A stretch of DNA of 64,000 nt, from the UHGV virus genome UHGV-1366990. One strand, written 5' to 3'. Made by a program: the position numbers and the translations under genes. This DNA is from a virus. The notes below the pieces were generated by a model. That model was not told where the DNA came from. It searched no databases and was given only the letters and a program-made list of their open reading frames with translations. Below are positions 2,415 to 62,158 of the stretch, one piece after another. Each line of letters starts with the position of its first letter. The stretch's first letter is position 1.

Positions 2415-3161
2415 ATGGCATCTCTCCAAGATCTACGCAAGCTGAATGACTTCGAAAACCGTCATTACACATTCCAGCAATACGAACTTCCTCATAAGGA
2501 ACTGGAGTGTGTTACGACGGAGAATGGTCGTCATTACGTTTCACCGTCTGGTGTAAAACTGACATCCGTCACGACTATGCTGGGACGCACTGGAGATCAT
2601 GAATGGCTTGAGTCTTGGAGGAAGAAGCTGGGCGCAGAGGCCGCTGATCTTGAGACCATGCGCTGTGCTGACCGAGGGGAGAAGCTGCACCTTGCTTGTG
2701 AACTGTATCTAAAGAACCGCCCAATGAAAGAAGTGTTGGAAGCGGCTGGCGAATACATGTTCATGTTCAAGCAGCTGTTCCCTTACCTGAACAAGATGAC
2801 AAAGATCTATGCTCAGGAGATCCCATTATATAGCGAGGTGCTTGGTCTTGCAGGTCGTGTAGACCTTATCGGGGTTTATGAGGGTAAACCTGCTGTCATC
2901 GACTTCAAGACATCGAACACCATGAAGACGCGGGGCATGATCGAGGATTACAGTATTCAGCTGTGCTTATATTCGGTCATGTTCCAGCAGATGTTCGGCG
3001 TCAAGATCACCCGCCTCATCAACGTGATTGCCAACGAGTCTTCCCCTCTACCAACCGTCATTGAGTTCAACCGTGATGACATTCTGACTAAGATGTTTGA
3101 GCGTGTTCGTCTGTATCATCGCATGGATAAAGAACAAAACGGAGTCTGGCCGGATCACTAA
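2415..3161 (+). CDS. Putative PD-(D/E)XK family nuclease (RecB/Cas4-like)
   Basis: Motifs GRVDLIGVY...AVIDFKTS...QLCLYS resemble the D/ExK and QxxxY motifs of RecB-family nucleases. Confidence 0.5.
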   Translation: MASLQDLRKLNDFENRHYTFQQYELPHKELECVTTENGRHYVSPSGVKLTSVTTMLGRTGDHEWLESWRKKLGAEAADLETMRCADRGEKLHLACELYLKNRPMKEVLEAAGEYMFMFKQLFPYLNKMTKIYAQEIPLYSEVLGLAGRVDLIGVYEGKPAVIDFKTSNTMKTRGMIEDYSIQLCLYSVMFQQMFGVKITRLINVIANESSPLPTVIEFNRDDILTKMFERVRLYHRMDKEQNGVWPDH

Positions 3162-5319: not shown

Positions 5320-5427
5320 TAATAACGCGTAGCGCAATTTGCCACTTGTTCTATAAGCAAAACACAGCGATACTAGATTTCGTCAAACATGACTTGAACC
5401 CCCACTATATTTTGAGGATACATACAA

Positions 5428-6096: not shown

Positions 6097-6176
6097 TCAA
6101 TCTCCAGCCTGATGCTATAATGTGTGGGCGGGGCGTTCCCCGCCTATTTGAAATGATTCTTCTACACGAGGCTGAA

Positions 6177-7622: not shown

Positions 7623-8087
7623 ATGGCGCGTAATACGCTAGACATATTGAATATTTCAGCAGTCAACGATGAGGCCAGCATCGTTGATTGTATGGTTGAA
7701 GTTCAATTGAACCAAGATCGGCCAGGTATATTCCTGGGGATCAAGGAAACACTGAGTCGAATTGGGGTAAACACGCGCCAAGAGCCGAATACTCTGTATC
7801 AGACTTGCCATATTCTTCATAAGTGTGGTAAGTATTATATCGTCCACTTTAAGCATCTATTTATGCTGGACGGGCATTACAACGGATTTAACCGCGAAGA
7901 TGTCCTGAGGATGAACCGAATCATCAAGCTGCTGGAGCAGTGGAACATGGTGAAGGTCATTCATCCTGAGCAGGTCACCGAAGCAGCCGATATGTCTCGC
8001 ATTAAAGTGGTTAAACACGATCAGGTTCCTGAATGGAAGCTGGTTCCAAAATACATCATCCGGCCTACAAAGGCAAAAAGCGAATAA
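7623..8087 (+). CDS. regA: RegA-like translational repressor
   Basis: LYQTCHILHKCGKYYIVHFKHL and EWKLVPKYII closely match T4 RegA. Confidence 0.85.
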   Translation: MARNTLDILNISAVNDEASIVDCMVEVQLNQDRPGIFLGIKETLSRIGVNTRQEPNTLYQTCHILHKCGKYYIVHFKHLFMLDGHYNGFNREDVLRMNRIIKLLEQWNMVKVIHPEQVTEAADMSRIKVVKHDQVPEWKLVPKYIIRPTKAKSE

Positions 8088-10268: not shown

Positions 10269-10383
10269 AGATTCCCTTTACTTCGTTCTTCAATAACTCT
10301 TTTCAACGTATTATTGACCTCACTTAAACGAAGCGCCCTGGCAAACGGGGCGCACATTTGAACTGAAACAGGAAGACTACACC

Positions 10384-12402
10384 ATGTCAGAATTTAAGCC
10401 CTTCGCAGTAGCTGTTAACAACAACGTGCTGGCTATGTCAGCATCTGGTCTGTTCATGACCAACATCGATAAAGATGCTCTGTGGGATCTGTATCTGTCT
10501 TCTTTCCCTGCTGGTACCAACCCGCTCTACCGTGAGCGTACCGAGCACGACTGCACCTGCTGTAAACAATTCATCCGTAACATCGGCGGTGTGGTCACCA
10601 TCGACGCCGACCTGAACGTGATCTCTATCTGGGATAACATTCAGCTGGGTAACGAATACGACGTTGTCGCTGCGGCGCTGTCAGCGTATGTTAAGCAGCA
10701 CGCAATCGTCGACGTGTACTTCAACGACACCAAGAAAGTTGGTGTTGAGTCGAATCACGAAATGAAAGACGGTATTGTCCGCACCTACAACCACTTCCAC
10801 ACCGACCTGCTGGGCAGCTATGTTCTGCGGGCAGATACCATCGCTTCTAAGAAGGGTGAAATCCGCCAGGCGATTGAAGTGTTTGAGCGCGGCCTGCGTG
10901 AACTGTCTCTGGAATCGGCTGAAATCGTTCTGGAATTGATTGACCAGAATTCTCTGTATCGCGGTGAAGAGCACAAAGCGGCAGTGCAGGCGTTCGTGGT
11001 GAACAAGACCCTGTACGAACAAACTGCAGAAGAGAAACGCGCTCTGTGGGCTTGGCGCACTGGCTACCGTGCAAACGGTCATACCCCTCACGGCATTCGT
11101 AATACCGTGATTGGCTCTCTGCTGGTAGACCTCAATGAAGGCCGGGATCTGGAAACCGCCGTGAAGTCCTTTGAAGCCAAAGTCGCTCCGACGAACTACA
11201 AGCGCCCAACCGCGCTGGTCACGAAGTCCATGATTGAAAACGCGCAGAAAGAAGTCGAAGCGCTGGGCCTGACCGATTCACTGGGTCGCCGTTATGCCGT
11301 GTATGACGATCTGACCATCAACAATGTTCTGTTCGCCGATCTGGCAGCTCAGAAGAAGATGGACCCGTTTGCTCAGCTGGCGTCTGAAGTGAAGACTCCG
11401 ACCAAGTCCCTGGACAAGGTTGAAGAGATCACGATCGACGACTTCCTGACCAACGTGTTGCCAAAGGCGCATTCCCTGGAAGTACTGGTTGAAAACTCTC
11501 ACATTGGCAACCTGATGTCCCTGATCGCTCCGGCTACCGCAGGCGCTCCTAACCTGTTCAAGTGGAACAACGGCTTCAGCTGGTCGTACAATGGCGAAGT
11601 GGCCGACTCCATCAAAGAGCGCGTGAAGACCGCAGGCGGTAATGTCGACAGTTTCCTCCGTGTGTCACTGGCTTGGCATAACAACGACGACCTGGATCTG
11701 AGCATGAACGATCCTCTTCACAACCACGTGTATTATCACAACCGTCGTTCGACAACTGGCGCAACTCTGGACATCGACATGAACGGTATGGACGGCATTG
11801 ATCCAAACCGCCGTCCGGTGGAGAACATCTTCTTCAGCGATGAACGCAAGCTGCGTGATGGTCTGTACGAGTTCTATGTCACTAACTTCAGCCAGCGTGA
11901 AACCTGTGATATGGGCTTCGAAATCGAAGTTGAATACAAAGGCCAGACCAAGCGTTTTTCGCATCCTGGCCTGAAGCACAAAGATCGCACTCTGGCTGTT
12001 GTGATTGATGTCCGCGCTGGACAAGTGGTAGACATCCGTTCTACCCTGAAAGACGACGCTCGCTCTCAGGAAATCTGGGGCATCAAGACCTCCGTCTTCC
12101 AGAAGGTACAGCTGGTTCTGAACTCACCAAACCATTGGGACGGCGAGCAGACTGGCAACAAGCACGTGTTCTTCATCCTGGAAGGTTGTGCTAACCCTGT
12201 CGGCACCCGTGGTTTCTATAACGAATATCTGAAGCCGGAACTTGATAAACACCGCAAGGTTTTTGAAATGTTAGGCGGTAAGATTAAAGTACAGCCAAGC
12301 ACTGAGCAGCTGTCCGGTCTGGGCTTCTCTACCACCCAACGCAACCACGTGTTCGTGAAGGTGAGCGGTTCGTTCAACCGCACTGTGAAAGTTGTGTTCT
12401 AA
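10384..12402 (+). CDS. Hypothetical protein (672 aa)
   Basis: Long ORF with RBS AGGAAG; no recognised catalytic motif. Confidence 0.7.
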   Translation: MSEFKPFAVAVNNNVLAMSASGLFMTNIDKDALWDLYLSSFPAGTNPLYRERTEHDCTCCKQFIRNIGGVVTIDADLNVISIWDNIQLGNEYDVVAAALSAYVKQHAIVDVYFNDTKKVGVESNHEMKDGIVRTYNHFHTDLLGSYVLRADTIASKKGEIRQAIEVFERGLRELSLESAEIVLELIDQNSLYRGEEHKAAVQAFVVNKTLYEQTAEEKRALWAWRTGYRANGHTPHGIRNTVIGSLLVDLNEGRDLETAVKSFEAKVAPTNYKRPTALVTKSMIENAQKEVEALGLTDSLGRRYAVYDDLTINNVLFADLAAQKKMDPFAQLASEVKTPTKSLDKVEEITIDDFLTNVLPKAHSLEVLVENSHIGNLMSLIAPATAGAPNLFKWNNGFSWSYNGEVADSIKERVKTAGGNVDSFLRVSLAWHNNDDLDLSMNDPLHNHVYYHNRRSTTGATLDIDMNGMDGIDPNRRPVENIFFSDERKLRDGLYEFYVTNFSQRETCDMGFEIEVEYKGQTKRFSHPGLKHKDRTLAVVIDVRAGQVVDIRSTLKDDARSQEIWGIKTSVFQKVQLVLNSPNHWDGEQTGNKHVFFILEGCANPVGTRGFYNEYLKPELDKHRKVFEMLGGKIKVQPSTEQLSGLGFSTTQRNHVFVKVSGSFNRTVKVVF

Positions 12403-17261: not shown

Positions 17262-17267
17262 CAGAAG

Positions 17268-17292
17268 TCCCCAACAAACGTTGGGGATTTTT
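17268..17292 (+). terminator. Rho-independent terminator after ACP-like gene
   Basis: TCCCCAAC/GTTGGGGA stem followed by TTTTT. Confidence 0.6.
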
Positions 17293-17303
17293 ACTTTTAG
17301 GGG

Positions 17304-17332
17304 TTTACTTCCTCTAAGGAATGTCCTATTAT
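17304..17332 (+). promoter_or_regulatory. Early-type promoter TTTACT-N17-TATTAT
   Basis: Exact 17-bp spacing; directly follows terminator hairpin. Confidence 0.6.
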
Positions 17333-17383
17333 TCAATAACTGGCGAACGATGGGTTCACCGGGTTGAAAGGTAAGATTATATC

Positions 17384-17623
17384 ATGAAGAACAAAATGGT
17401 CGAAACTTCAGTAGAGATTGATCGCAATTGGGGATTGCTCCGCGCTAAAGGGTTCCGCCGTGTGTATGCGACCAAAGAAGTCTACGCACAGCGTCGTGAC
17501 GTTATCATCAGCAAGAAAGGCAAAGAGTGGGTTGCTGAAGAAGTTGATGTCGAGACAGGCATCGTAGGAAAGGTAAAGGCCAAGGCCGCGATCCTCTTCG
17601 CTCTTCTGAAGCACATCAGTTAA
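17384..17623 (+). CDS. Hypothetical small basic protein
   Basis: 79-aa ORF downstream of TTTACT-N17-TATTAT promoter. Confidence 0.55.
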   Translation: MKNKMVETSVEIDRNWGLLRAKGFRRVYATKEVYAQRRDVIISKKGKEWVAEEVDVETGIVGKVKAKAAILFALLKHIS

Positions 17624-17682
17624 TTCTATAACTTTGGGCGGGGTATGATTACCCCGTCTATTTGAAACCAAGAGACTATATC

Positions 17683-18057
17683 ATGAAAAAGTTAATCCTC
17701 GCTGTTGCCCTGCTGGGCGCTTCCTTTGCTGCTGTTTCCGCCCCTCCTGTCATCACCGGAGTGTCTACCAACGGTGTTTATGCTTTCAAGGCGTATGGCC
17801 AAGACCTCGTTCTGTATAAGAACGGGAAGATGATTGAGCGCTGCGTATCAGACGACGTGAATCGTGGGATCGACAATCAGGGTAGCCCATACGTCCTGGA
17901 CATCTATTCCTGCTCCAACGGGACGAAGTCCTTTGGCGTCAAGACCTTTGGCAACGTCGCCGACGGTGGCTGGGGCTTCATGTTCGAAACCCGCAACCAC
18001 CACCCGGTCAAGACCATGCAAGAAGAGTTCTTGATCTCTGTCGGGGGTACGTTATGA
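17683..18057 (+). CDS. Secreted protein with N-terminal signal peptide
   Basis: MKKLILAVALLGASFAAVSA signal peptide; internal ATG of ORF 17662..18057. Confidence 0.65.
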   Translation: MKKLILAVALLGASFAAVSAPPVITGVSTNGVYAFKAYGQDLVLYKNGKMIERCVSDDVNRGIDNQGSPYVLDIYSCSNGTKSFGVKTFGNVADGGWGFMFETRNHHPVKTMQEEFLISVGGTL

Positions 18058-18501: not shown

Positions 18502-18533
18502 CTAAGGGATAACCCTATATCCCGAGGTGTGTC

Positions 18534-20992: not shown

Positions 20993-21024
20993 GGGCGGCT
21001 TATCATAAAGCTGCCCTTTCATTT
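20993..21024 (+). terminator. Possible terminator hairpin
   Basis: GGGCGGC..GCTGCCC stem (one G-U pair) followed by TTTCATTT. Confidence 0.4.
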
Positions 21025-21037
21025 GAGAGACTATATC

Positions 21038-21700
21038 ATGGAAAAACTTTATTCTATTATCGTCGGTCCTGATCCTGACGGATTATTCTTCGCCCCGTTG
21101 TCTTATATTGCCCACGCCCGTATCGGTAGCCATTACGCATATTGCACACGTGGCCACGACGGTTCCAATATCCTCCATTATAACCGCATGAACGATTTCC
21201 TGGCACTTCAACCAGAAGATGTTGTGCTGGCGCGTCGCGTGTTCATCGACTTCAACGCTATGCACAACAACGAAATTGACGCTCGCTATCATGCCATGCG
21301 TTCTATGGAAGGGGGAGACTGCATTTATCGCATCGACCATTTTAGTGAGTTTACCGAATGTATTGATTGGTTCGTTTCAGAAAAGACGTTGGGTGAAAGA
21401 ATCGTCACAACTCCGTGGGCGCATGCGGAACAACTTCGTGTGTCTACCGATGCGTACAAAGAAGTCGACAATCTGTGCAACAAGTTCCGCATCTCGGTGA
21501 CCTGTAATCAAGACCTGGGCGAAGAGATACAATGGACAGCTGAGTCTCCTCATTTCAGTGGCCTGGTGATGACGGCCGAAACCCGTTCCCGTGCTGTTGT
21601 CCAGTTAGTACTCTGGGCGTTCTACCAGCGCACCCCGTTCTCATACATGGGACAGAAAGAGATTGATGAACTCCTGAAGTCTCACGCGGTGGAGGTGTAA
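21038..21700 (+). CDS. Hypothetical protein
   Basis: Internal ATG (MEKLYS) of ORF 20939..21700, preceded by GAGAGACTATATC leader. Confidence 0.6.
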   Translation: MEKLYSIIVGPDPDGLFFAPLSYIAHARIGSHYAYCTRGHDGSNILHYNRMNDFLALQPEDVVLARRVFIDFNAMHNNEIDARYHAMRSMEGGDCIYRIDHFSEFTECIDWFVSEKTLGERIVTTPWAHAEQLRVSTDAYKEVDNLCNKFRISVTCNQDLGEEIQWTAESPHFSGLVMTAETRSRAVVQLVLWAFYQRTPFSYMGQKEIDELLKSHAVEV

Positions 21701-25158: not shown

Positions 25159-25193
25159 AGTTTCATTCCTCTTTCTATAAAACCAGTTTGGGA

Positions 25194-25201
25194 TATTTAT
25201 A
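25194..25201 (-). promoter_or_regulatory. T4-type late promoter TATAAATA (minus strand)
   Basis: Plus-strand TATTTATA; 35 nt upstream of minus start at 25158. Confidence 0.6.
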
Positions 25202-25203
25202 TC

Positions 25204-25731
25204 ATGATAGAAATTTATTCTGACGGGGGTTCTAACCCGAAGACCAACCAGGCCGCAGGCTGGGCATTTGTCATCAGGCCAATAACGGGTATGCAATGGA
25301 AGGTGTTCTTCGGTCATCTACCTCCCCCGTCCACCAACAATATCGCCGAGTTGTTGGGTGTGACCAACGCATTGAAGCTACTGTGGGCATTCTCAGGAAA
25401 GGGTGAGCGCAGAATACCAAAGGCAACAATTTGGTCTGACAGCCAATATGCCATCAAGAGTGTCACCGAATGGCGAACGAAGTGGGAGTATCAGGGGTTC
25501 CCAGAAAAGAACGTTGAACTCATCAAAGATCTGTTCAGAATCTATGATCTCGTTTGTTCAATTTGTGATGTTGAACTAAAATGGGTTAAGGGTCATGCGG
25601 GACACGAAGGCAACGAACTTGCCGATGACTGGGCTACAGCAGCCAAAAACGACAGCAACTTCCTGATTGAGAATGACAAGATCTCGGTGAGGAAGGTTGT
25701 TGGATCTTTTGATGAATTTATCGGTATCTGA
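25204..25731 (+). CDS. rnhA: Ribonuclease H (type 1, RnhA-like)
   Basis: YSDGGS...TNNIAEL...DSQY...WVKGHAGHEGNELADDWA matches RNase HI catalytic motifs. Confidence 0.85.
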   Translation: MIEIYSDGGSNPKTNQAAGWAFVIRPITGMQWKVFFGHLPPPSTNNIAELLGVTNALKLLWAFSGKGERRIPKATIWSDSQYAIKSVTEWRTKWEYQGFPEKNVELIKDLFRIYDLVCSICDVELKWVKGHAGHEGNELADDWATAAKNDSNFLIENDKISVRKVVGSFDEFIGI

Positions 25732-32031: not shown

Positions 32032-32061
32032 AAATAATTCAATAAAAGGGGCTTTTGCCCC

Positions 32062-32090
32062 TTTACTTCTTCAATATCCTTCCCTATACT
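32062..32090 (+). promoter_or_regulatory. Early-type promoter TTTACT-N17-TATACT
   Basis: Exact 17-bp spacing; -35 overlaps 3' arm of hairpin 32047..32062. Confidence 0.6.
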
Positions 32091-32138
32091 TCATTCCATA
32101 AGCAGTACGACACCAACTTGAATAGCAGGAACTATATC

Positions 32139-32474
32139 ATGACACAACTCAAGAACTTCACCGCCGATGACATGTTCACCTTCCAGGGTGCTGAGCACTT
32201 TGCTGACGGCTCTGTACCTCGCATCTACTACTTCTCCGACGAAGAAATGGAAGATTTCTTCGCCCTGATGGAAAAGGACTACGAACCAGACGACTTCGTT
32301 TATATCATCCATCACGCCGAAGGACTGACATTGGGTTGGACGGCCAGCAATGAACCAGAAGAAGTAAACTTCCCTGAAGGTATCATGTCAGAGCGCGTCG
32401 AATATCTACTGGAAGCCCTGGACCCCCACACCCTCCCGCTCTGGGCGATGTCTGTAGCCCAAGTTCAAAAATAA
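32139..32474 (+). CDS. Hypothetical acidic protein
   Basis: Internal ATG of ORF 32055..32474 preceded by promoter and GGAACTATATC leader. Confidence 0.6.
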   Translation: MTQLKNFTADDMFTFQGAEHFADGSVPRIYYFSDEEMEDFFALMEKDYEPDDFVYIIHHAEGLTLGWTASNEPEEVNFPEGIMSERVEYLLEALDPHTLPLWAMSVAQVQK

Positions 32475-38593: not shown

Positions 38594-38622
38594 TTTACTC
38601 TTCAATAATGATGCACTATTAT
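38594..38622 (+). promoter_or_regulatory. Early-type promoter TTTACT-N17-TATTAT
   Basis: Exact 17-bp spacing; 20-bp AT palindrome just upstream. Confidence 0.6.
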
Positions 38623-38695
38623 AGTTCACATAGGGCGACAACACACCGCCGAATGAAAAGTGAAACGCACCAACTACATTATGAGGAATTACATC

Positions 38696-39184
38696 ATGGC
38701 TACTACCAAAACTCTGATCACCAACGGCACCATCTCTTTCGAACTGAACACCGAAGTTGCTAAAGTTGAAATGTTCCGCATCGCTCAGGCAGCTGGCTTC
38801 ACTGGTGGTAAAACTTCCTTCATGAACCTGCTGAACGGTAAAGTGAAATCGACAAACGGCTTCACCCTGGTAGAGCAGGTTGTGGTTGATAAAGCTGTGG
38901 TTGCTAAGACTGCCGACAAAGTTGGTATGCTGAAAAACCTGGGTCACGACATCCACATTGTCGAAGCAAACACCGAAACTTACGGCACCATCGTAGTCGG
39001 TAAAGGTCGCATCCAGCTGAACCCGCTGAACAACGGTTCCTTCTCTGTGATGGTCTTCCCTAAGAAGGGGTATGACAACACCGACATCGTGAAAGCTGTT
39101 GGCGGCGAAGCAAAAGCTCAGTACGTCAAAATGGGTAAACTGAGCGCCGACGCAGTTGAAGCTCTGGTGAGCAAACTGGCCTAA
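38696..39184 (+). CDS. Hypothetical protein
   Basis: Own TTTACT-N17-TATTAT promoter and terminator. Confidence 0.65.
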   Translation: MATTKTLITNGTISFELNTEVAKVEMFRIAQAAGFTGGKTSFMNLLNGKVKSTNGFTLVEQVVVDKAVVAKTADKVGMLKNLGHDIHIVEANTETYGTIVVGKGRIQLNPLNNGSFSVMVFPKKGYDNTDIVKAVGGEAKAQYVKMGKLSADAVEALVSKLA

Positions 39185-43950: not shown

Positions 43951-44020
43951 ATTGGTCTAAACCTGCTACCGTTATATCATCAGGGGTGAGAGATCACCCC
44001 TTATTAATCAGGAGTTCTAT

Positions 44021-44314
44021 ATGTTCCAAACGTTATTGTTAGTCCCTGGTCAACCAGGTATCTTGCTCGAACACAACAGCAAAATGGAAGCGGAGAATGT
44101 TCTCCACAACGTGAAGGTGGCCACTGCTTGGCACAACGGCGGCGAAGTCACGGCTATCCCGTTGAACTACACGGATCCATTGGATACTGTGAACCGTACC
44201 CACATCCTTCTAGACCTCAGCAAATTACCTGCAGACAAACGCCAGGATTTTGTTGTTAACGTCAAGAATTACATCACCGCTGAACAGATCAAACTCCACG
44301 GAGGCAAGGCATAA
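44021..44314 (+). CDS. Hypothetical protein between nrdA and nrdB
   Basis: 97-aa ORF. Confidence 0.45.
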   Translation: MFQTLLLVPGQPGILLEHNSKMEAENVLHNVKVATAWHNGGEVTAIPLNYTDPLDTVNRTHILLDLSKLPADKRQDFVVNVKNYITAEQIKLHGGKA

Positions 44315-44315
44315 C

Positions 44316-45419
44316 ATGAGCGAACAGAAACAATTCTCCGTATTCGACCCAAGCTCGGACAACACTGGTCTACCGTTCTTCGGTGACCCAGTGAGCATTC
44401 AGCGTTACGATGTCGTGGCCTGGCCATTCGTACAGAAGTGGTATGAGAAAGGTCTCAGCCAGTTCTGGCGTCCTGAAGAGGTGGACATCACCAAGGACAA
44501 GGCAGACTTCGCTACTCTGAACGAAGCAGAGAAACATGTCTACTTCAGCAACCTGAAGCGCCAGACCATGCTGGACTCTATCCAGGGTGCGGCTCCGTTC
44601 GAGGCGTTTGGTCCATGGGCGTCTACCCCTGAAATGCAGTTTGCTGTCCTTGAATGGACGCGCCAGGAAGCCATTCACTCTTTATCGTACACCCACATTT
44701 TGCGCAACACTGTGAACGATCCTGGTATCGTGTTTGACCACGTACTGGATGTTGTAGAGATCGTGGACTGTGCTCACCAGATCAGTGTGTACTACGATGA
44801 CATGGTGCAGTACAGTGGCATGCGTATGGCCGGACGTGTCTTCACCCGAGAAGATCTGATGAATGCCAAACGCGCATTCTGGCGTGCTCTGTTTGCTGCC
44901 AACACACTGGAAGGCATCCGCTTCTACGTGTCCTTTGCATGCTCTTGGGCATTCACACAGTTCCAGAAGAAGATGGAAGGCAATGCCAAAATCATTCGAC
45001 AGATCGCCCGTGATGAGCAGGATCACCTGATCCTGACCCAGACGTTACTAAACCGCCTGCCTGGTATGGACCCCGACTTTGCAATTATCCGTGAGGAACT
45101 GCGTGGTGAGATGACCCAGATGTTCCTGGACGTGGTCCATCAGGAGAAGGAGTGGGCGAACTACCTATTCAAAGACGGTTCCATCCTGGGGCTGAACGCC
45201 AAGATCCTTCATCAGATGGTAGACTGGCTGGCAACCCACCGAATGGGCGCTATCGGGCATCCATATCCCGGTGAACCTCGCAAGGAGAACCCAGTCCCAT
45301 GGATTAATGACTGGCTAGATAATAAGGCAATGCAGTACGCGTTGCAGGAAGCGGAAGCTCCTGATTATCTGATGGGTGTACTGACTGGTTCGGTATCCGA
45401 TGGCCTCAAATTCGCTTAA
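44316..45419 (+). CDS. nrdB: Ribonucleotide reductase small subunit (NrdB)
   Basis: Di-iron/tyrosyl-radical motifs (EAIHSLSY, RDEQDH). Confidence 0.9.
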   Translation: MSEQKQFSVFDPSSDNTGLPFFGDPVSIQRYDVVAWPFVQKWYEKGLSQFWRPEEVDITKDKADFATLNEAEKHVYFSNLKRQTMLDSIQGAAPFEAFGPWASTPEMQFAVLEWTRQEAIHSLSYTHILRNTVNDPGIVFDHVLDVVEIVDCAHQISVYYDDMVQYSGMRMAGRVFTREDLMNAKRAFWRALFAANTLEGIRFYVSFACSWAFTQFQKKMEGNAKIIRQIARDEQDHLILTQTLLNRLPGMDPDFAIIREELRGEMTQMFLDVVHQEKEWANYLFKDGSILGLNAKILHQMVDWLATHRMGAIGHPYPGEPRKENPVPWINDWLDNKAMQYALQEAEAPDYLMGVLTGSVSDGLKFA

Positions 45420-45428
45420 AGGTGAGAA

Positions 45429-45653
45429 ATGATTACGATCTATTCCAAACAAGGTTGCGCTCAGTGTGTAACAGCCGAAAATCTGTGCAAAATGAAAGGG
45501 CTGGAACACAAGATCCTCAAGCTGGACAAAGATTACCGGCTGGAAGAACTTCAGCAGTTGACGGGTAAGCCGCGCGTGTCGATGCCTGTAATCGTCCTCG
45601 CTGACCAGACCGTGACCGACGTTAATGGACTCGCCGCCAGCCTTAAACGCTGA
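45429..45653 (+). CDS. Glutaredoxin/NrdH-like redoxin
   Basis: CAQC active site near N-terminus; 74 aa; next to nrdAB. Confidence 0.8.
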   Translation: MITIYSKQGCAQCVTAENLCKMKGLEHKILKLDKDYRLEELQQLTGKPRVSMPVIVLADQTVTDVNGLAASLKR

Positions 45654-45661
45654 CAATCCAA

Positions 45662-45686
45662 AGCCCCTCAATGAGGGGCTTTACTT
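45662..45686 (+). terminator. Terminator hairpin after glutaredoxin gene, fused to downstream promoter
   Basis: AGCCCCTC/GAGGGGCT stem followed by TTTACTTCT. Confidence 0.45.
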
Positions 45687-45708
45687 CTATAATCCCTGCG
45701 CTTATACT
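45680..45708 (+). promoter_or_regulatory. Early-type promoter TTTACT-N17-TATACT
   Basis: Exact 17-bp spacing; -35 overlaps 3' arm of terminator hairpin. Confidence 0.6.
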
Positions 45709-45758
45709 TCCCAGTAATTCATTGGCATTCGCCACAAATTGAAAGCGGGAACTATATC

Positions 45759-46220
45759 ATGACAAACAAGATACTCACCAACCCAATGCACAACTTCGGT
45801 TACATTCAACTCCCTCTGGTGATCGACACCCTGTACGCCGACGACAAAGAAGAGATCTGCTGGTCACCCACCGCACTGATTGAACGCGAAATCTTCAAGT
45901 CTGTTGTTGATGTTATGTTCCGTATCGGTCGCAATGGACCTCTGGTCTACCTCGGCAAAGTAACTGAACTGAAGACAAGCCACAATGAACGCTTCCTGCG
46001 TATTGATACCACAGGGTGCTCTCAGCAGGACTTCAACACATTGCGCAATTATGTTCTGGTCAACCGCCCGGTCAGCCAGCACCGACCGTATCTGACTTCA
46101 ATGCACATCGACAATTTCATCACCGACGTGCACCTCCGCGCCGAAACCCTCCATGAAGAGGAAACAGGCCGAGCTATCGACACAGTCTTAAATATGGTTG
46201 TGATCACCCTGGCGGAGTAG
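45759..46220 (+). CDS. Hypothetical protein
   Basis: Own promoter TTTACT-N17-TATACT and GGAACTATATC leader. Confidence 0.6.
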   Translation: MTNKILTNPMHNFGYIQLPLVIDTLYADDKEEICWSPTALIEREIFKSVVDVMFRIGRNGPLVYLGKVTELKTSHNERFLRIDTTGCSQQDFNTLRNYVLVNRPVSQHRPYLTSMHIDNFITDVHLRAETLHEEETGRAIDTVLNMVVITLAE

Positions 46221-46225
46221 TCCTC

Positions 46226-46576
46226 ATGCAAGATTACAAAGAGTTGAGAATGCAGCTGGCAGTCCCCATACCAGACAAAGGTTTATACCAAAACCTGCAT
46301 CATCTGATGTCTGAAGGGCATATGCTGCCCTTGCGGTCTGAGGATGGATCTCAGATCGGTTATGCCACCAGTTGCGTGGTCTACGACAAACCAGGAGACG
46401 AAGAGCGCGGACAGGTCAGTGTGGGTTCCAGATTTGTGTTGAACAAGAAGCTGGAGGGATCAGTGGTTGACGTCAGGCCGATGATTATCCTCTACCACTT
46501 CAACGGCAAAGAAATGTTCAGGTTATTGAGCCACTTCATGATAGTCGTGGCTCCGGCATTCAGGACGAAACTCTAA
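46226..46576 (+). CDS. Hypothetical protein
   Basis: 116-aa ORF. Confidence 0.5.
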   Translation: MQDYKELRMQLAVPIPDKGLYQNLHHLMSEGHMLPLRSEDGSQIGYATSCVVYDKPGDEERGQVSVGSRFVLNKKLEGSVVDVRPMIILYHFNGKEMFRLLSHFMIVVAPAFRTKL

Positions 46577-46953
46577 TTCGTCCTTTTCAACCACACGGTG
46601 TCTGTTATTGGATCTGGATTGTTGACCACATAGAATGTGATGGTCACGCCCAGAGAATGGTAATCCTCTGACAGACTCACCGTGACTTCTTCTACCTCTG
46701 CTCTGGGTTCATACAGGGCGATGGCGTCCTCTACTTTGTTCTTCACATCTACCTGGATAGTCGGTGTCGTGTTTTCACCCAGCAGCCCATAAAGCCCCGC
46801 GCCGATCCCAGGATAAGTGGGCCAGTCCCCGACTGAAGACATGACGATATTCCGCACGGATTGTAAGACAGCATACACACCTGATTTCATAGTGACGTCT
46901 TTGGTCACCGGATGCATGCCGAACTTCAGATCGACATCTTTATACTCTTTCAT
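46573..46953 (-). CDS. 25: Baseplate wedge protein (gp25/GPW-like)
   Basis: 126 aa; size and sequence pattern of gp25-family lysozyme-like baseplate proteins. Confidence 0.7.
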   Translation of the reverse strand: MKEYKDVDLKFGMHPVTKDVTMKSGVYAVLQSVRNIVMSSVGDWPTYPGIGAGLYGLLGENTTPTIQVDVKNKVEDAIALYEPRAEVEEVTVSLSEDYHSLGVTITFYVVNNPDPITDTVWLKRTN

Positions 46954-47026
46954 TTCGCGATCCTCTCAGGATGCCTATAAGGAGCAGAGAGACGTGCTGT
47001 CCCTCTGCCACTAAACTTATACCAAC

Positions 47027-48637
47027 TTACTCTTTGGTGCCGAAATTACCACCATTGTCTTTTAATTCTGCCTTGATGTCAATCTCACCCGGACCCGTAG
47101 GGGATGCAGGGGTTGCACCTGACAGAGAAGAAGCGCGACCAGCACCTTCGGCATATATGATGTTACCATTGATCGTCTGAGCGACAGTCAGTTTGTCAGC
47201 GATTATCTCAGTCGTTAGAATCTTAGGAACCTTCAATGTCCCACCGACCTCCAGAGTCTCGCAGATAATGCGCAGAATATTCTGCGCTTGCATTTCCGCT
47301 AGGTCACTGAATTTCATCAGCGCTGTGCCCGCAACCACGTTGGAGTAATTGTTGGAATGCAAATGATAGACCTCACCTGTCTTGCGCTGAACTTCAGTTC
47401 CTTTGACCGTCAGGTTGTGGTCCCCGCCGACATAATAACGCTTGTTGAACATCGTCAGGTCATAGTGGTCTTTGACGGACTTGTTGACCACATCACCATC
47501 CGGCAACATTTGCTTGTAAGACCCAGACTTATGCATCCAATGAAGACGTTCACCACCAGGGGTGTCATCCACTTCCATAATATGCCCAGCTCGGGACACC
47601 ATGACGTTATTGTACGGGTATTTAGATCCACCCGCAGCCGGAACCATGGTTTCTCCAGTGTTGTCAATATCCTGTACTCGCCCAGTAGGAGCCGGAGTCG
47701 GTTGTTCCTTTGGAGTACGATCTGGGATAGGTTCTGACCATTTACCATTCTGCTGCGCAGGCGCGGCTGTGGCTGTGTTAGCAGGACCAGGCCAACGATA
47801 TCCCAAGACCGAAGAACGTCTGAAACGACTGACCTTCACTGAATCGGATTGGTTGCCACCAATACACCAGACATAGTTTGCATCGAACTTCTGCACAAAC
47901 GCTACGTGTCCAAATGTGGGGTTGTTACCACGCCGGAAGACTACGATAGCGCCATATTGTGGTGCTGACAGTGGAGTGCCCCATGTAAGGTAAGATCGGG
48001 CAAGAGCGGAGCGCGTAGACGTGTATCCAGCCTGTATCATAACCCAACCCACGAACGCCGCACACCACGACACTTCATCTTCAGAAGCACCAAGGGAGGT
48101 TGTCTTGTGATATTCTATAATGCGCGGGTTGTTGTTGAACTTTCCAGCGTACTCCTTGATACCCAATTCGCCACGAGCGATTGTCATCCACTTCTCTGGA
48201 TCATACCCGCCAACAGGTGGTTGTGGATCTGGTTGTGGTTCGTCTTCTTGTTTCACAGGAACGTCAGTGACGGCGTTGTACGCCTGACGTTCCACAGATT
48301 GAACGACCTGCCCGAGAGCCAGCGGGTTTGTGTCGGCGCCATCAGTAGGGCTTGAACCAGTCCAAGTCCAGGTGATGCGTAAATTCTGGTATGCTTCGTC
48401 AAGGGCGAACCCCATAACCTCAGTGCCAGGAATGATACCCGTTGGAGACCAACCTAAACCAGCAGAGGAGGCGTTTGAAGCAGGCATCAGTACCTTCGCC
48501 CATGGGAGTTTGTCCGTAGGCAGGAGGACGGGATCGTCGGTGTGTACGCCATATATGCGAACAGCAACTCGCCCATTTTGGTCTGGATCGTTGACATCTT
48601 CAACGGTGCCGTAAAACCATCTCATATTGTCTAACAT
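47027..48637 (-). CDS. 5: Baseplate hub/tail-puncturing protein (gp5-like) with CHAP/NlpC-P60-like domain
   Basis: N-terminal OB region resembles T4 gp5; central SWCAAFVGWV...GHVAFV Cys/His motif; C-terminal beta-helix-like region. Confidence 0.75.
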   Translation of the reverse strand: MLDNMRWFYGTVEDVNDPDQNGRVAVRIYGVHTDDPVLLPTDKLPWAKVLMPASNASSAGLGWSPTGIIPGTEVMGFALDEAYQNLRITWTWTGSSPTDGADTNPLALGQVVQSVERQAYNAVTDVPVKQEDEPQPDPQPPVGGYDPEKWMTIARGELGIKEYAGKFNNNPRIIEYHKTTSLGASEDEVSWCAAFVGWVMIQAGYTSTRSALARSYLTWGTPLSAPQYGAIVVFRRGNNPTFGHVAFVQKFDANYVWCIGGNQSDSVKVSRFRRSSVLGYRWPGPANTATAAPAQQNGKWSEPIPDRTPKEQPTPAPTGRVQDIDNTGETMVPAAGGSKYPYNNVMVSRAGHIMEVDDTPGGERLHWMHKSGSYKQMLPDGDVVNKSVKDHYDLTMFNKRYYVGGDHNLTVKGTEVQRKTGEVYHLHSNNYSNVVAGTALMKFSDLAEMQAQNILRIICETLEVGGTLKVPKILTTEIIADKLTVAQTINGNIIYAEGAGRASSLSGATPASPTGPGEIDIKAELKDNGGNFGTKE

Positions 48638-49149: not shown

Positions 49150-49956
49150 TTAAATGAAAATTTCATTAATACTATTGAATTCGATTTTGTGCTCCTTACC
49201 ACATTTCGGACACTTGATCGAACTCTTGTAGTGGATGCGCGGTATTTTGTGGAAGAAGTTCTTCGTAATGCTGTCAATAACATCTGATTCGATGTTATCC
49301 TTCACCCACTCAACAAACGCTTCTTTCACACGGCGGCGCTCAGTAGCCTCTTCCGGAGTGATCCCGATTTCTTCAGGATTCTCAACCTTCCACACCTGAC
49401 CGTCATCATCGTACAGACAGTCGATAAAGGTGGCCAGCATCATCTCAACGCTTACAGCATCAGACATTGCCGTAGCGTCCGAGAAGGAAGGTTGGCGCAT
49501 CTTGAGGTGATATCCACCTGGCAGGTCAAACGTCTCCCGGAAGCCGTCCTGAGCAATGCATTTGACGTTGTTCAACGGGATAGGTAGAGTCAGTTCCTGC
49601 TCACAGGGAACCATCTGGTGCTTTTCTTGACCATCTCCCAGATCGATCGTTTCTTCAATCTGATTATTACACTTATAACGAATCTTCATCAATTCACCGA
49701 TGGAGATCATGCGCATGCGGATGAACACTTCCTCAACAACGCCGATTGGCAGTTTACTGAAAGGTGCGCCTGCATTTACACACTCGCTAAAGAGACTCTC
49801 CATCATGGCCGCGCGTTCTTCAATCGGCGTTTGCGGATCTGACACCTGAAGTAATAAAGTTTGTTGCCCCGCAGTAAAGGCGCGATATTTGATCACAGTA
49901 GGCCAAAAGTCGCTTTTATATGTCTTTTCTGTTCTGGGCAATGATGGTAAATTCAT
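49150..49956 (-). CDS. Hypothetical protein with C-terminal zinc ribbon (CPKCGKEH)
   Basis: Internal ATG (MNLPSLP) of minus ORF 49150..50070 with RBS GGAGA. Confidence 0.6.
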   Translation of the reverse strand: MNLPSLPRTEKTYKSDFWPTVIKYRAFTAGQQTLLLQVSDPQTPIEERAAMMESLFSECVNAGAPFSKLPIGVVEEVFIRMRMISIGELMKIRYKCNNQIEETIDLGDGQEKHQMVPCEQELTLPIPLNNVKCIAQDGFRETFDLPGGYHLKMRQPSFSDATAMSDAVSVEMMLATFIDCLYDDDGQVWKVENPEEIGITPEEATERRRVKEAFVEWVKDNIESDVIDSITKNFFHKIPRIHYKSSIKCPKCGKEHKIEFNSINEIFI

Positions 49957-56714: not shown

Positions 56715-56743
56715 TTTACATCTATGAAAATGCAGTATATTAT
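56715..56743 (+). promoter_or_regulatory. Early-type promoter TTTACA-N17-TATTAT
   Basis: 17-bp spacing, ~70 nt upstream of ATG 56812. Confidence 0.55.
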
Positions 56744-61088: not shown

Positions 61089-62158
61089 TGGACCGCATGC
61101 TGAAGGTTGCTAAGAAACACGATGACCAGGCTTCAGTGCTGTCCCAATCAGACGCTCTGGAACCGTCTATCATCTGTTCTACTGGTATTCCCCTGATCGA
61201 TATCGCATGGTCTGGGCGTATTGACGGCGGTCTGATCTCCGGTATCAAGATGATGGTGGGTGATTCCCGTACCTTCAAAACGATGTTCGGCCTGGTCGAT
61301 GTCAAGGCGTACATGGACAAGTTCCCTGATGCTATCTGCGTCTTTGCGGACTCAGAAAAGGGTGCCAACGCCGATTACTGGACCTCTATGGGCATTGACA
61401 TGGACCGCGTCCTGTACGTACCGATCGACAACGTTGAACAGACCAAGATCCGCTTGCTGCAGATCCTCCAGGAAGTCAAGAAAGGCGACCATGTTATAAT
61501 CTTCATCGACTCTATCAGCCAACTTCCCTCCACCAAGGAAGTTGAAGATGCGATCAAAGGGAACGACACTCAAGACATGACCCGCGCCCGTGCCCTCAAC
61601 AGCTTCTGGCGTGTCATGACTCCCGAAATCAACAGCAAAAATCTCGTGTGTGTTTGGATCAACTCCTATTACGATGAGATCGGCAACCAGTATGCCGAGC
61701 CTAACATCAAAGGCGGCAAACAGGGCTTCTTATCCTCCAACTTGATATGGTTTATCACCCGTTCTCAGGTGAAGGAAGACAAAGATCTGCTAGGCTGGAA
61801 CTTCAACATAAGCATCATGAAAGGCCGCCATGTCAAAGAAAAAGCCAAGCTCCCTGTGACGGTACTGTACAACGGTGGTATTGATCGCTGGAGCGGCCTG
61901 CTTGAGATCGCTCGTGCTCTGGGTTATGTTGATATGCCGTCTTCCGGTTGGTATGTGCGTACAGCCAAGGGTGGTTTCGATCCTGAGAAGGAAAAGAAAT
62001 ATCAGAAGCGTCAGATGGGTGATGATTTCTGGTATCCGCTGCTGGAGAATGTCAACTTCGCCGATGACGTGAAGAAAATGTTCGGTGTTTCTAACGGTAC
62101 TGTTATGCCTGCTAACATGCTGGAGCAAATGGACCATGTTATTAACACAAGCGAATAA
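61073..62158 (+). CDS. uvsX: UvsX RecA-like recombinase
   Basis: Extended similarity to T4 UvsX (FIDSISQLPSTKEVEDAIKG..DMTRARALNSFWRV). Confidence 0.85.
   Translation: MASSLMDRMLKVAKKHDDQASVLSQSDALEPSIICSTGIPLIDIAWSGRIDGGLISGIKMMVGDSRTFKTMFGLVDVKAYMDKFPDAICVFADSEKGANADYWTSMGIDMDRVLYVPIDNVEQTKIRLLQILQEVKKGDHVIIFIDSISQLPSTKEVEDAIKGNDTQDMTRARALNSFWRVMTPEINSKNLVCVWINSYYDEIGNQYAEPNIKGGKQGFLSSNLIWFITRSQVKEDKDLLGWNFNISIMKGRHVKEKAKLPVTVLYNGGIDRWSGLLEIARALGYVDMPSSGWYVRTAKGGFDPEKEKKYQKRQMGDDFWYPLLENVNFADDVKKMFGVSNGTVMPANMLEQMDHVINTSE

Follow-up and report, generated by a model that had tools for sequence, protein, structure and literature searches.

Promoter-early stem-loop cassettes (PeSLs), known from T4-type phages, consist of an early promoter directly preceded by a stem-loop and carry a Shine-Dalgarno (SD) sequence and a start codon at their 3' end (PMC4122927, PMC2839356). 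They are present in multiple copies and are located at insertions and deletions of open reading frames (ORFs) (Comeau et al. 2014, PMC4122927; Arbiol et al. 2010, PMC2839356), and the consensus of their promoters in T4 and PST is TTTACW-N17-TAYWAT (PMC4122927). The translational repressor RegA of T4 acts on sites located over the AUG or immediately 5' of it, which are A+U-rich and unstructured and carry a 5' poly(A) tract (PMC3014915). Here we analyse a stretch of 64,000 nucleotides of the virus genome UHGV-1366990 (hereafter called the window, to which all coordinates refer unless another genome is named), and in particular the 53 nucleotides at 45709-45761, which an initial annotation of the sequence had put forward as a candidate RegA operator. 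These 53 nucleotides probably represent the transcribed leader and the ribosome-binding site of an early gene, and the conserved module at their 3' end is probably the translation-initiation end of PeSL-like early cassettes, a type of cassette known from T4-type phages.

Sequence similarity places the window in an Agtrevirus-like, Vi1-like phage of the Ackermannviridae. A megablast search with positions 44000-48000 returned Escherichia phage vB_EcoM-RPN242 (hereafter RPN242) with 98.5% identity across the entire query, and Shigella phage Ag3 (Ackermannviridae, Aglimvirinae) with ~91% identity. The reverse complement of RPN242 is colinear with the window over ~30-94 kb. The window covers a replication and nucleotide-metabolism region, most genes of which are carried by the + strand. 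As the closest complete genome, RPN242 was analysed locally in its entirety (195 coding sequences, CDS), together with 100 kb of Kuttervirus CBA120 and 40 kb of Miltonvirus phiMAM1, and orthologous intergenic regions were also taken from one Taipeivirus and one Nezavisimistyvirus. A scan of IMG/VR with a single protein yielded four loci only, and INPHARED genomes were used instead.

The intergenic region at 45654-45758 is composed, in this order, of a stem-loop, the hexamer TTTACT, a 17-nt spacer, the hexamer TATACT, a 30-nt leader and the module, all on the + strand. The terminator-like stem-loop (AAAGCCCCTCAATGAGGGGCTTT, 45660-45682) follows the glutaredoxin gene, and its 3' U-run overlaps the -35 box (TTTACT, 45680-45685) of a predicted T4-type early, sigma-70-like promoter. 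This -35 box is invariant in eight orthologous intergenic regions. The -10 box, identified as a sequence match (TATACT, 45703-45708), lies 17 nt past the -35 box, and transcription would start near position 45715. The non-module part of the leader (45709-45738) is kept among orthologues and is not common to other cassettes. It is followed by the module proper, TTGAAAGCGGGAACTATATC-ATG (45739-45761), which is predicted to be unstructured and comprises a UUGAAA box, a weak SD (GGGA), the spacer ACUAUAUC and the AUG. The latter opens a CDS of 153 residues (45759-46220, +; phrog_3902) with no assigned function.

Two other full cassettes are found on the + strand of the window. The second (32044-32141) consists of a hairpin (32044-32064), a TTTACT -35 box (32062-32067), a TATACT -10 box (32085-32090) and the module TTGAATAGCAGGAACTATATC-ATG (32118-32141), and the third (17267-17386) of a hairpin (17267-17288), a TTTACT -35 box (17304-17309), a TATTAT -10 box (17327-17332) and the module TTGAAAGGTAAGATTATATC-ATG (17364-17386). 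In these two cassettes, transcription would start near positions 32097 and 17339, respectively. As in PeSLs, a stem-loop located just upstream of the promoter is followed in all three cases by a sigma-70-like early promoter, which by sequence match fits the TTTACW-N17-TAYWAT consensus, and by an SD and a start codon at the 3' end, here the three modules. Also as with PeSLs, there are several copies per genome, they precede small ORFs without assigned function, and insertions, deletions and replacements of ORFs between related phages join at the cassette. At the level of sequence, all features of PeSLs are thus present here.

The cassettes differ from PeSLs in several respects. They belong to Ackermannviridae, and neither they nor the module are described in the genome papers of Ag3, CBA120 and LIMEstone or in the 2024 review of the family. 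Their 3' part is a defined module of ~25 nt, in contrast with the generic SD of PeSLs: it reads (U)UUGAAA, a short purine SD (GGA, GAG or AAGA), (A)CUAYAYC and AUG, often followed by AC, with the spacing from TTGAAA to TAYAYC fixed at 8-9 nt. The module is also found behind promoterless hairpins, namely at 17636-17685 (+; hairpin GGGCGGGGTATGATTACCCCGTC at 17636-17658, then TTTGAAACCAAGAGACTATATC-ATG at 17661-17685) and at 20993-21040 (+; hairpin at 20993-21016, then TTTGAGAGACTATATC-ATG at 21022-21040), upstream of the genes starting at 17683 and 21038. Lastly, some of the genes behind the module are conserved core-type genes, such as that of RNase H, whose start region is TTTGGGATATTTATATC-ATG (25187-25206, +).

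The initial annotation had reported near-identical sequences across the start codons of five genes, with ATGs at 17384, 17683, 21038, 32139 and 45759, and we found all five sites as it had written them. The sequence ACTATATCATG is present in the window in four exact copies and one copy with one mismatch, all on the + strand. Allowing for at most one mismatch, these five matches compare with a mean of 1.03 in shuffled sequences, and five matches were reached in 1 of 100 shuffles. The shorter 9-mer TATATCATG has six copies in the window, on the + strand throughout, whereas 300 Markov-1 simulations yielded 0.39 copies on average and never more than 4. The sixth copy, which the initial annotation had missed, corresponds to the RNase H start at 25204. 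Each of the copies in the window is located at the initiating ATG of a real gene. The PHROG profiles align from residue 1 of the products (residue 2 for the 45759 product), and therefore the ATGs of the modules are the true starts.

In RPN242, all eight copies of TATATCATG are found at start codons, including one located 12 nt upstream of the annotated start, for which the CBA120 annotation takes the upstream ATG. In this respect, the gene at 17384 (76106 in RPN242) has a start annotated in RPN242 12 nt downstream of the module ATG, and its upstream ATG, giving a product of 79 residues, is backed by CBA120 and by the PHROG profile. The module can thus be used to correct start codons, for instance that of RPN242 gp110.

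An upstream TTGAA(A/T) box, initially noted for two of the genes, is indeed present at 17364, 17662, 32118 and 45739, and in RPN242 TTGAA[AT] is found at -22 to -19 in eight genes compared with 0.65 expected. The products of the genes belong to separate PHROG families, and pairwise BLAST comparisons gave no match below E = 0.1, so that the proteins are not homologous, as had been claimed. That the conservation is regulatory rather than protein-coding is borne out by these unrelated products, by the presence of the same intergenic region before non-homologous ORFs and by the cross-genus alignment described below. The conserved sequence coincides with the region in which translation of early genes is initiated.

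An alternative explanation would be that the motif reflects chance or a generic start-codon context, with no discrete element. The position matrix of all 195 starts of RPN242 yields the consensus GGGGA-ATATATC-ATG-ACA. Because this genome-wide consensus matches the motif, the latter represents the peak of a general start-context preference, and the genes outside the class also favour A at -3, T at -2 and A or C at -1. However, 13 genes of RPN242 are at most one mismatch away from ACTAYAYC, compared with 2.1 genes expected from independent positions and 0.5 from non-start ATGs, and CTAYAY begins at -7 in eight genes compared with 0.11 expected per position. These excesses indicate a discrete class, beyond the generic context. 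In view of the shuffle controls, the co-occurring TTGAA box, the 13-gene excess and the conservation across genera, we rejected chance or generic context as the explanation, which we regard as highly implausible. The module is a real regulatory element and is family-wide.

We searched the window for early promoters using the pattern TTTACW-N16-18-TAYWHT, which gave five matches, at 17304, 32062, 38594, 45680 and 56715. The corresponding predicted promoters (17304-17332, 32062-32090, 38594-38622, 45680-45708 and 56715-56743) are of the form TTTACT-N17-TATACT/TATTAT, and start regions of the class are found downstream of four of the five. By comparison, the genome papers report ~8 early promoters for Ag3 and CBA120 and 5 for LIMEstone1. 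The promoter spacer often opens with TCTTCAATAA(C), and the promoter usually begins within the U-run of the preceding terminator.

The presence of these well-formed predicted promoters bears on another reading of the motif, in which TTGAAA would be a -35-like or activator box and TAYAYC a -10-like box of a promoter of middle-mode transcription. The motif is indeed bipartite with a fixed spacing, and the middle promoters of Ackermannviridae are not known (PMC3184105). Nevertheless, the spacing is 8-9 nt rather than the 16-18 nt of sigma-70 promoters or the 11-13 nt of the MotA type, and TAYAYC lacks the T at -7. Moreover, the ATG directly follows in 8/8 exact cases, and since it abuts the second box, the transcript would begin inside the ORF, without SD and AUG. 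Loose matches without ATG have no purine tract and appear random, and a separate predicted promoter is already available upstream. Given the wrong spacing and the abutting ATG, we discarded this promoter reading, to which we attach hardly any probability.

The genes that use the module share several properties. They represent ~13 of the 195 genes, and almost every one of them is a first cistron preceded by a hairpin or by a T4-type early promoter. In RPN242, the intergenic region upstream measures at least 40 nt for 12 of the 13 class genes and for 86 of 181 others, and these long intergenic regions indicate that the class genes are first cistrons that need de novo initiation. Their SD pairing is weaker than that of the other genes (-4.65 vs -6.12 kcal/mol, p = 0.003), as is their local folding (-3.5 vs -5.8 kcal/mol, p = 0.002), and their A+T fraction is higher (0.67 vs 0.60, p = 0.0004). 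Three leaders have no upstream hairpin (45759, 32139 and 25204), and their fold z-scores lie between 0.27 and 1.80. The z-score is -1.07 for the 17384 leader, in which the sole predicted structure is upstream of the module. No RNA structure was predicted inside the modules; the upstream terminator-like hairpins alone fold.

To describe the conservation of the cassette, we aligned the 45759 intergenic region of eight genomes from six genera. The stem-loop is maintained across the six genera through compensatory changes (gcccct/aggggc, gccccc/gggggc, ggccgg/ccggcc and gcctgg/ccaggc). TTTACT, TATACT and CTATATC-ATG are kept in all eight genomes, and the leader in between diverges. CACTATATC-ATG is still present in Erwinia phage Bue1, despite a protein identity of 29% to the 45759 product. 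Similarly, the CBA120 orthologue of the 21038 gene has a protein identity of 34%, yet it keeps the hairpin and TTTGAGAGATCTATATT-ATG. The 17384 cassette and its CBA120 counterpart are near-identical over 60 nt before the ATG, with identical modules. The variations among orthologues mainly concern T/C at -4 and -2, giving TATATC, TACATC, TATACC and TACACC. In Miltonvirus, variants with UUUACA/CUACAC take the place of UAUAUC.

A search of phage records with a 33-nt consensus identified 829 places in 319 records. Approximately 285 of these records have Ackermannviridae-type hosts, with 1-6 (mostly 2-4) places each among the matches listed, and the remaining matches are at chance level. On this basis, the module is specific to Ackermannviridae.

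Comparisons between genomes also revealed that the ORFs behind the cassettes are exchanged. In the CBA120 slot of the window 32139 gene, the same 107-nt intergenic region is found up to the ATG, but it leads there to orf112, which is not homologous to the window gene: BLAST gave no match with the 32139 product even at E = 100. The replacement of the window ORF (32139-32474, 111 residues) by that of CBA120 (61746-62021, 91 residues) is exact at the ATG. In a second case, the 45759 leader of CBA120 is followed by an inserted ORF, orf096 (77 residues, 49488-49721), and only then by the orthologue of the 45759 gene, which is a coupled second cistron without module. A second, out-of-frame ATATATCATG is present 22 nt inside orf096 and may represent a recombination scar. 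In a third case, orf176 of CBA120 is gone from RPN242, where the leftover leader ends with ...GAAGGAACTA, and the homology breaks exactly within the module. Outside of the region matching the window, positions 95197-95398 of RPN242 form a 202-nt intergenic region with an orphan promoter and a leader ending with ...TGAAATGAAGGAACTA, a remnant of a deleted orf176-type gene.

The junctions of these three insertion, deletion or replacement events (orf112 vs 32139, orf096 and orf176) are all at the module, which suggests that recombination takes place there. The cassette is kept independently of the ORF behind it and therefore marks the point of ORF insertion, deletion and replacement. We considered whether the copies stem from the recent duplication of whole cassettes, and rejected this: the cassettes of one genome show no relation in the leader that separates promoter from module, and this leader is conserved between orthologous cassettes across genera.

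The explanation that we favour, and consider reasonably probable, is thus that of a composite cassette in which a terminator-like stem-loop is followed by a T4-type early promoter, a short gene-specific leader and the ~25-nt initiation module. The latter would be a lineage-specific ribosome loading site of Ackermannviridae, A+U-rich, with a weak SD and no predicted structure, used by first cistrons that recruit ribosomes de novo behind early promoters or hairpins. As with PeSLs, the cassette would double as a marker of the point at which accessory ORFs are exchanged. The sequences suggest that the promoters are active and that the module sets translation efficiency. A comparable arrangement is found in the T7 gene 10 leader, which has a strong SD and for whose upstream element a pairing with rRNA has been proposed. 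Both combine an A/U-rich upstream element, an SD and a UAUA-type spacer (GGAGAUAUACAU-AUG in T7, GGAACUAUAUC-AUG here) with efficient de novo initiation. In contrast with T7, however, the SD is weak here, and the longest run of complementarity between the module and Escherichia coli 16S rRNA, including G-U pairs, is 9, compared with a shuffle mean of 9.06. Extended pairing with 16S rRNA, which is no better than in shuffles, was thus rejected as a candidate explanation.

Three observations weigh against ribosome loading as the full explanation. Firstly, the class spacers are not significantly more conserved than others between RPN242 and CBA120 (0.77 vs 0.63, p = 0.22, n = 7), and therefore the claim of conservation rests on the eight-genome alignment and on the orthologue with 34% identity. 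Secondly, it is not obvious that ribosome loading needs the exact CUAYAYC spacer across genera, and a sequence-specific trans-acting factor fits this better. Thirdly, the element is also found in displaced form, lacking an internal SD and located 16-23 nt upstream of the AUG, in the 38696 gene, the gp042 orthologues, gene 45, and MAM_123 and MAM_157 of phiMAM1. These displaced copies indicate that the element is not only an SD plus a spacer; they hint at recognition beyond these parts and leave room for a sequence-specific factor.

A candidate for such a factor is RegA. As initially proposed, a RegA homologue is encoded in the window (7623-8087, +; 154 residues), matching Pfam PF01818 with E = 2e-34 over positions 1-121 of the 122 of the profile and the T4 RegA structure 1REG with E = 4e-26, in the conserved gene order 45-44-62-regA. 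It has a 23-residue N-terminal extension (7623-7691), its 154 residues comparing with 122 in T4 RegA. In the operator hypothesis, it would bind the module, which is single-stranded, on the AUG or beside it, compete with the 30S subunit and shut off early mRNAs as it accumulates. The protein is full length and has kept T18, R21 and W81, which belong to the RNA pocket of T4 RegA (PMC3014915). K14, R91 and F106, which contact the RNA in T4 RegA, have given way to G, V and H, respectively, and therefore the specificity of the homologue cannot be inferred.

The module shares general properties with the operators of T4 and RB69 RegA, being located on the AUG of early mRNAs or just 5' of it, single-stranded and A+U-rich (PMC3014915), and the gene order around regA is the same. 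The module genes are early genes, the weak SD would be easily outcompeted by a repressor, and the exact sequence is kept across genera. The displaced copies of gp042 and of the 38696 gene, in Aglimvirinae and Cvivirinae, are also in line with RegA binding, as an AUG that is not the annotated start still follows them and the ligands of T4 RegA also hold an AUG. Gene 45, a target of RegA in both T4 and RB69, harbours TTGAAC-N5-CTATAT just 5' of its SD, which is kept in CBA120; its displaced copy has no following non-start AUG.

Other features of the module are at odds with known RegA operators. The ~30 targets of T4 RegA display no clear sequence conservation (PMC3014915), whereas the module is sharply conserved. 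It contains conserved C residues and no poly(A) run (GGAACUAUAUC-AUG), in contrast with the T4 sites. The ligands obtained by SELEX are AAAAUUGUUAUGUAA for T4 RegA and AAUAAUAAUAAnA, with UAA repeats, for RB69 RegA (PMC3014915); in our comparison, the module matches the T4 consensus at 4 of 9 positions and has nothing like the RB69 repeats. The start region of regA itself (AAAAGGGGAAUGAGUC-AUG) lacks the module both in the window phage and in CBA120, and the CTACAC copy of gene 44 is not conserved. We found no transcriptome for Ackermannviridae in the literature, nor any binding or genetic study of a RegA of this family. Finally, the membership of the genes in PeSL-like cassettes already explains the shared sequence. 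We hold the RegA-operator hypothesis, for which the circumstantial support is mixed, to be reasonable but less likely than not, and it can add to ribosome loading and need not replace it.

With the same reserve, RegA of Ackermannviridae, or a different factor of the phage, could use UUGAAA-N(8-9)-CUAYAYC-AUG as an RNA operator recognized by its sequence, and a compact early-gene regulon would thereby be defined. If so, no repressor of the RegA family would previously have had a consensus operator as sharply defined as this one, since the targets in T4 and RB69 have resisted definition, and the same element would also serve as a recombination joint that plugs new early ORFs into an existing circuit of expression and shut-off. 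The module is in any event a short candidate for the RNA specificity of the Ackermannviridae RegA.

Another trans-acting RNA factor might recognize the module, for instance an endoribonuclease of the phage or the host, cleaving between SD and AUG for RegB-like inactivation, or a different RNA-binding protein. The element is sequence specific and is found in two registers relative to the AUG, as would suit such a factor. T4 RegB inactivates early mRNAs by cleavage at the SD-linked consensus GG*AGRAYARAA (PMC3014915), and its sites show that long SD-anchored sequences used for switching off early mRNAs exist in this superfamily. However, in our comparison the module has GGAAC or GAGAC followed by UAUAUC, instead of GGAG and RAYARAA. 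As this sequence falls outside the consensus, we rejected a RegB-type site. Furthermore, the sole factor acting on translation or RNA identified in the CBA120 paper is represented by RNase H orthologues, although that paper missed RegA and no scan for RegB was made here. Overall, recognition by such another factor appears improbable.

We also searched the genome for trans-encoded antisense or small RNAs directed against the module. Besides the opposite strand of the modules themselves, this yielded one 11-mer only (GAACTATATCA), located inside the coding sequence of gene 44, where it encodes QNYIT, and this candidate was rejected as well.

Returning to the cassette as a ribosome loading and exchange unit, Ackermannviridae (Vi1, CBA120, Ag3 and LIMEstone types) are commonly used in biocontrol and detection, and their gene regulation is poorly known, the genome papers reporting few early promoters and no post-transcriptional signals. 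Our analysis provides a concrete consensus for early promoters, a family-specific early translation module, and a cassette that represents the unit behind which accessory ORFs swap. As a handle for engineering, payload genes could be placed behind the module.

Variants of the module were identified at other places on the + strand. At 10357-10386, the variant TTTGAACTGAAACAGGAAGACTACACC-ATG has a hairpin upstream (10333-10353). A tandem variant, GTGAAACGCACCAACTACATT-ATG-AGGAATTACATC-ATG, is found at 38660-38698, downstream of the early promoter at 38594-38622, and its first copy has no SD. The tandem units read AACTACATT-ATG-AGG-AAT-TACATC-ATG, with the first ATG in frame and followed by an AGG that serves as SD for the second. 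This arrangement is kept in CBA120, and phiMAM1 keeps the first unit without its ATG. The leader of gene 45, the sliding-clamp gene (5394-5427), is made up of TTGAAC-CCCCA-CTATAT followed by TTTGAGGATACATACAA-ATG, i.e. a displaced element and a near-class start, and is kept in CBA120. At 18506-18523, GGGATAACCCTATATCCC forms a perfect 6-bp hairpin (GGGATA/TATCCC) that holds CTATATC just 5' of the SD of the 18534 gene and that is kept in CBA120; its heptamer is probably structural and not a module.

Boxes reading CTAAATAC or TTAAATAC are present at 3158, 30695, 36177 and 39807 on the + strand and at 47625 on the - strand, and precede late or structural genes, one of which encodes the gp5 baseplate hub (47027-48637, -). 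They probably represent the gp55-type late promoter of Ackermannviridae, which was not identified in the CBA120 paper.

Hairpins of the type GGGCGGGG-loop-CCCCGCC followed by (C/T)ATTTGAAA recur before several genes, including gene 44. They are found at 17636-17668, 6130-6160 and 10333-10365 in the window and upstream of 77294/77853 in CBA120, and their sequences resemble those of weak terminators or attenuators that have a short U-tract and are joined to the UUUGAAA box. The product encoded at 17683-18057, behind one of them, has a signal-peptide-like N-terminus (MKKLILAVALLGASFAAVSA), and neighbouring small genes of this region in CBA120 are annotated as lipoprotein and superinfection exclusion genes.

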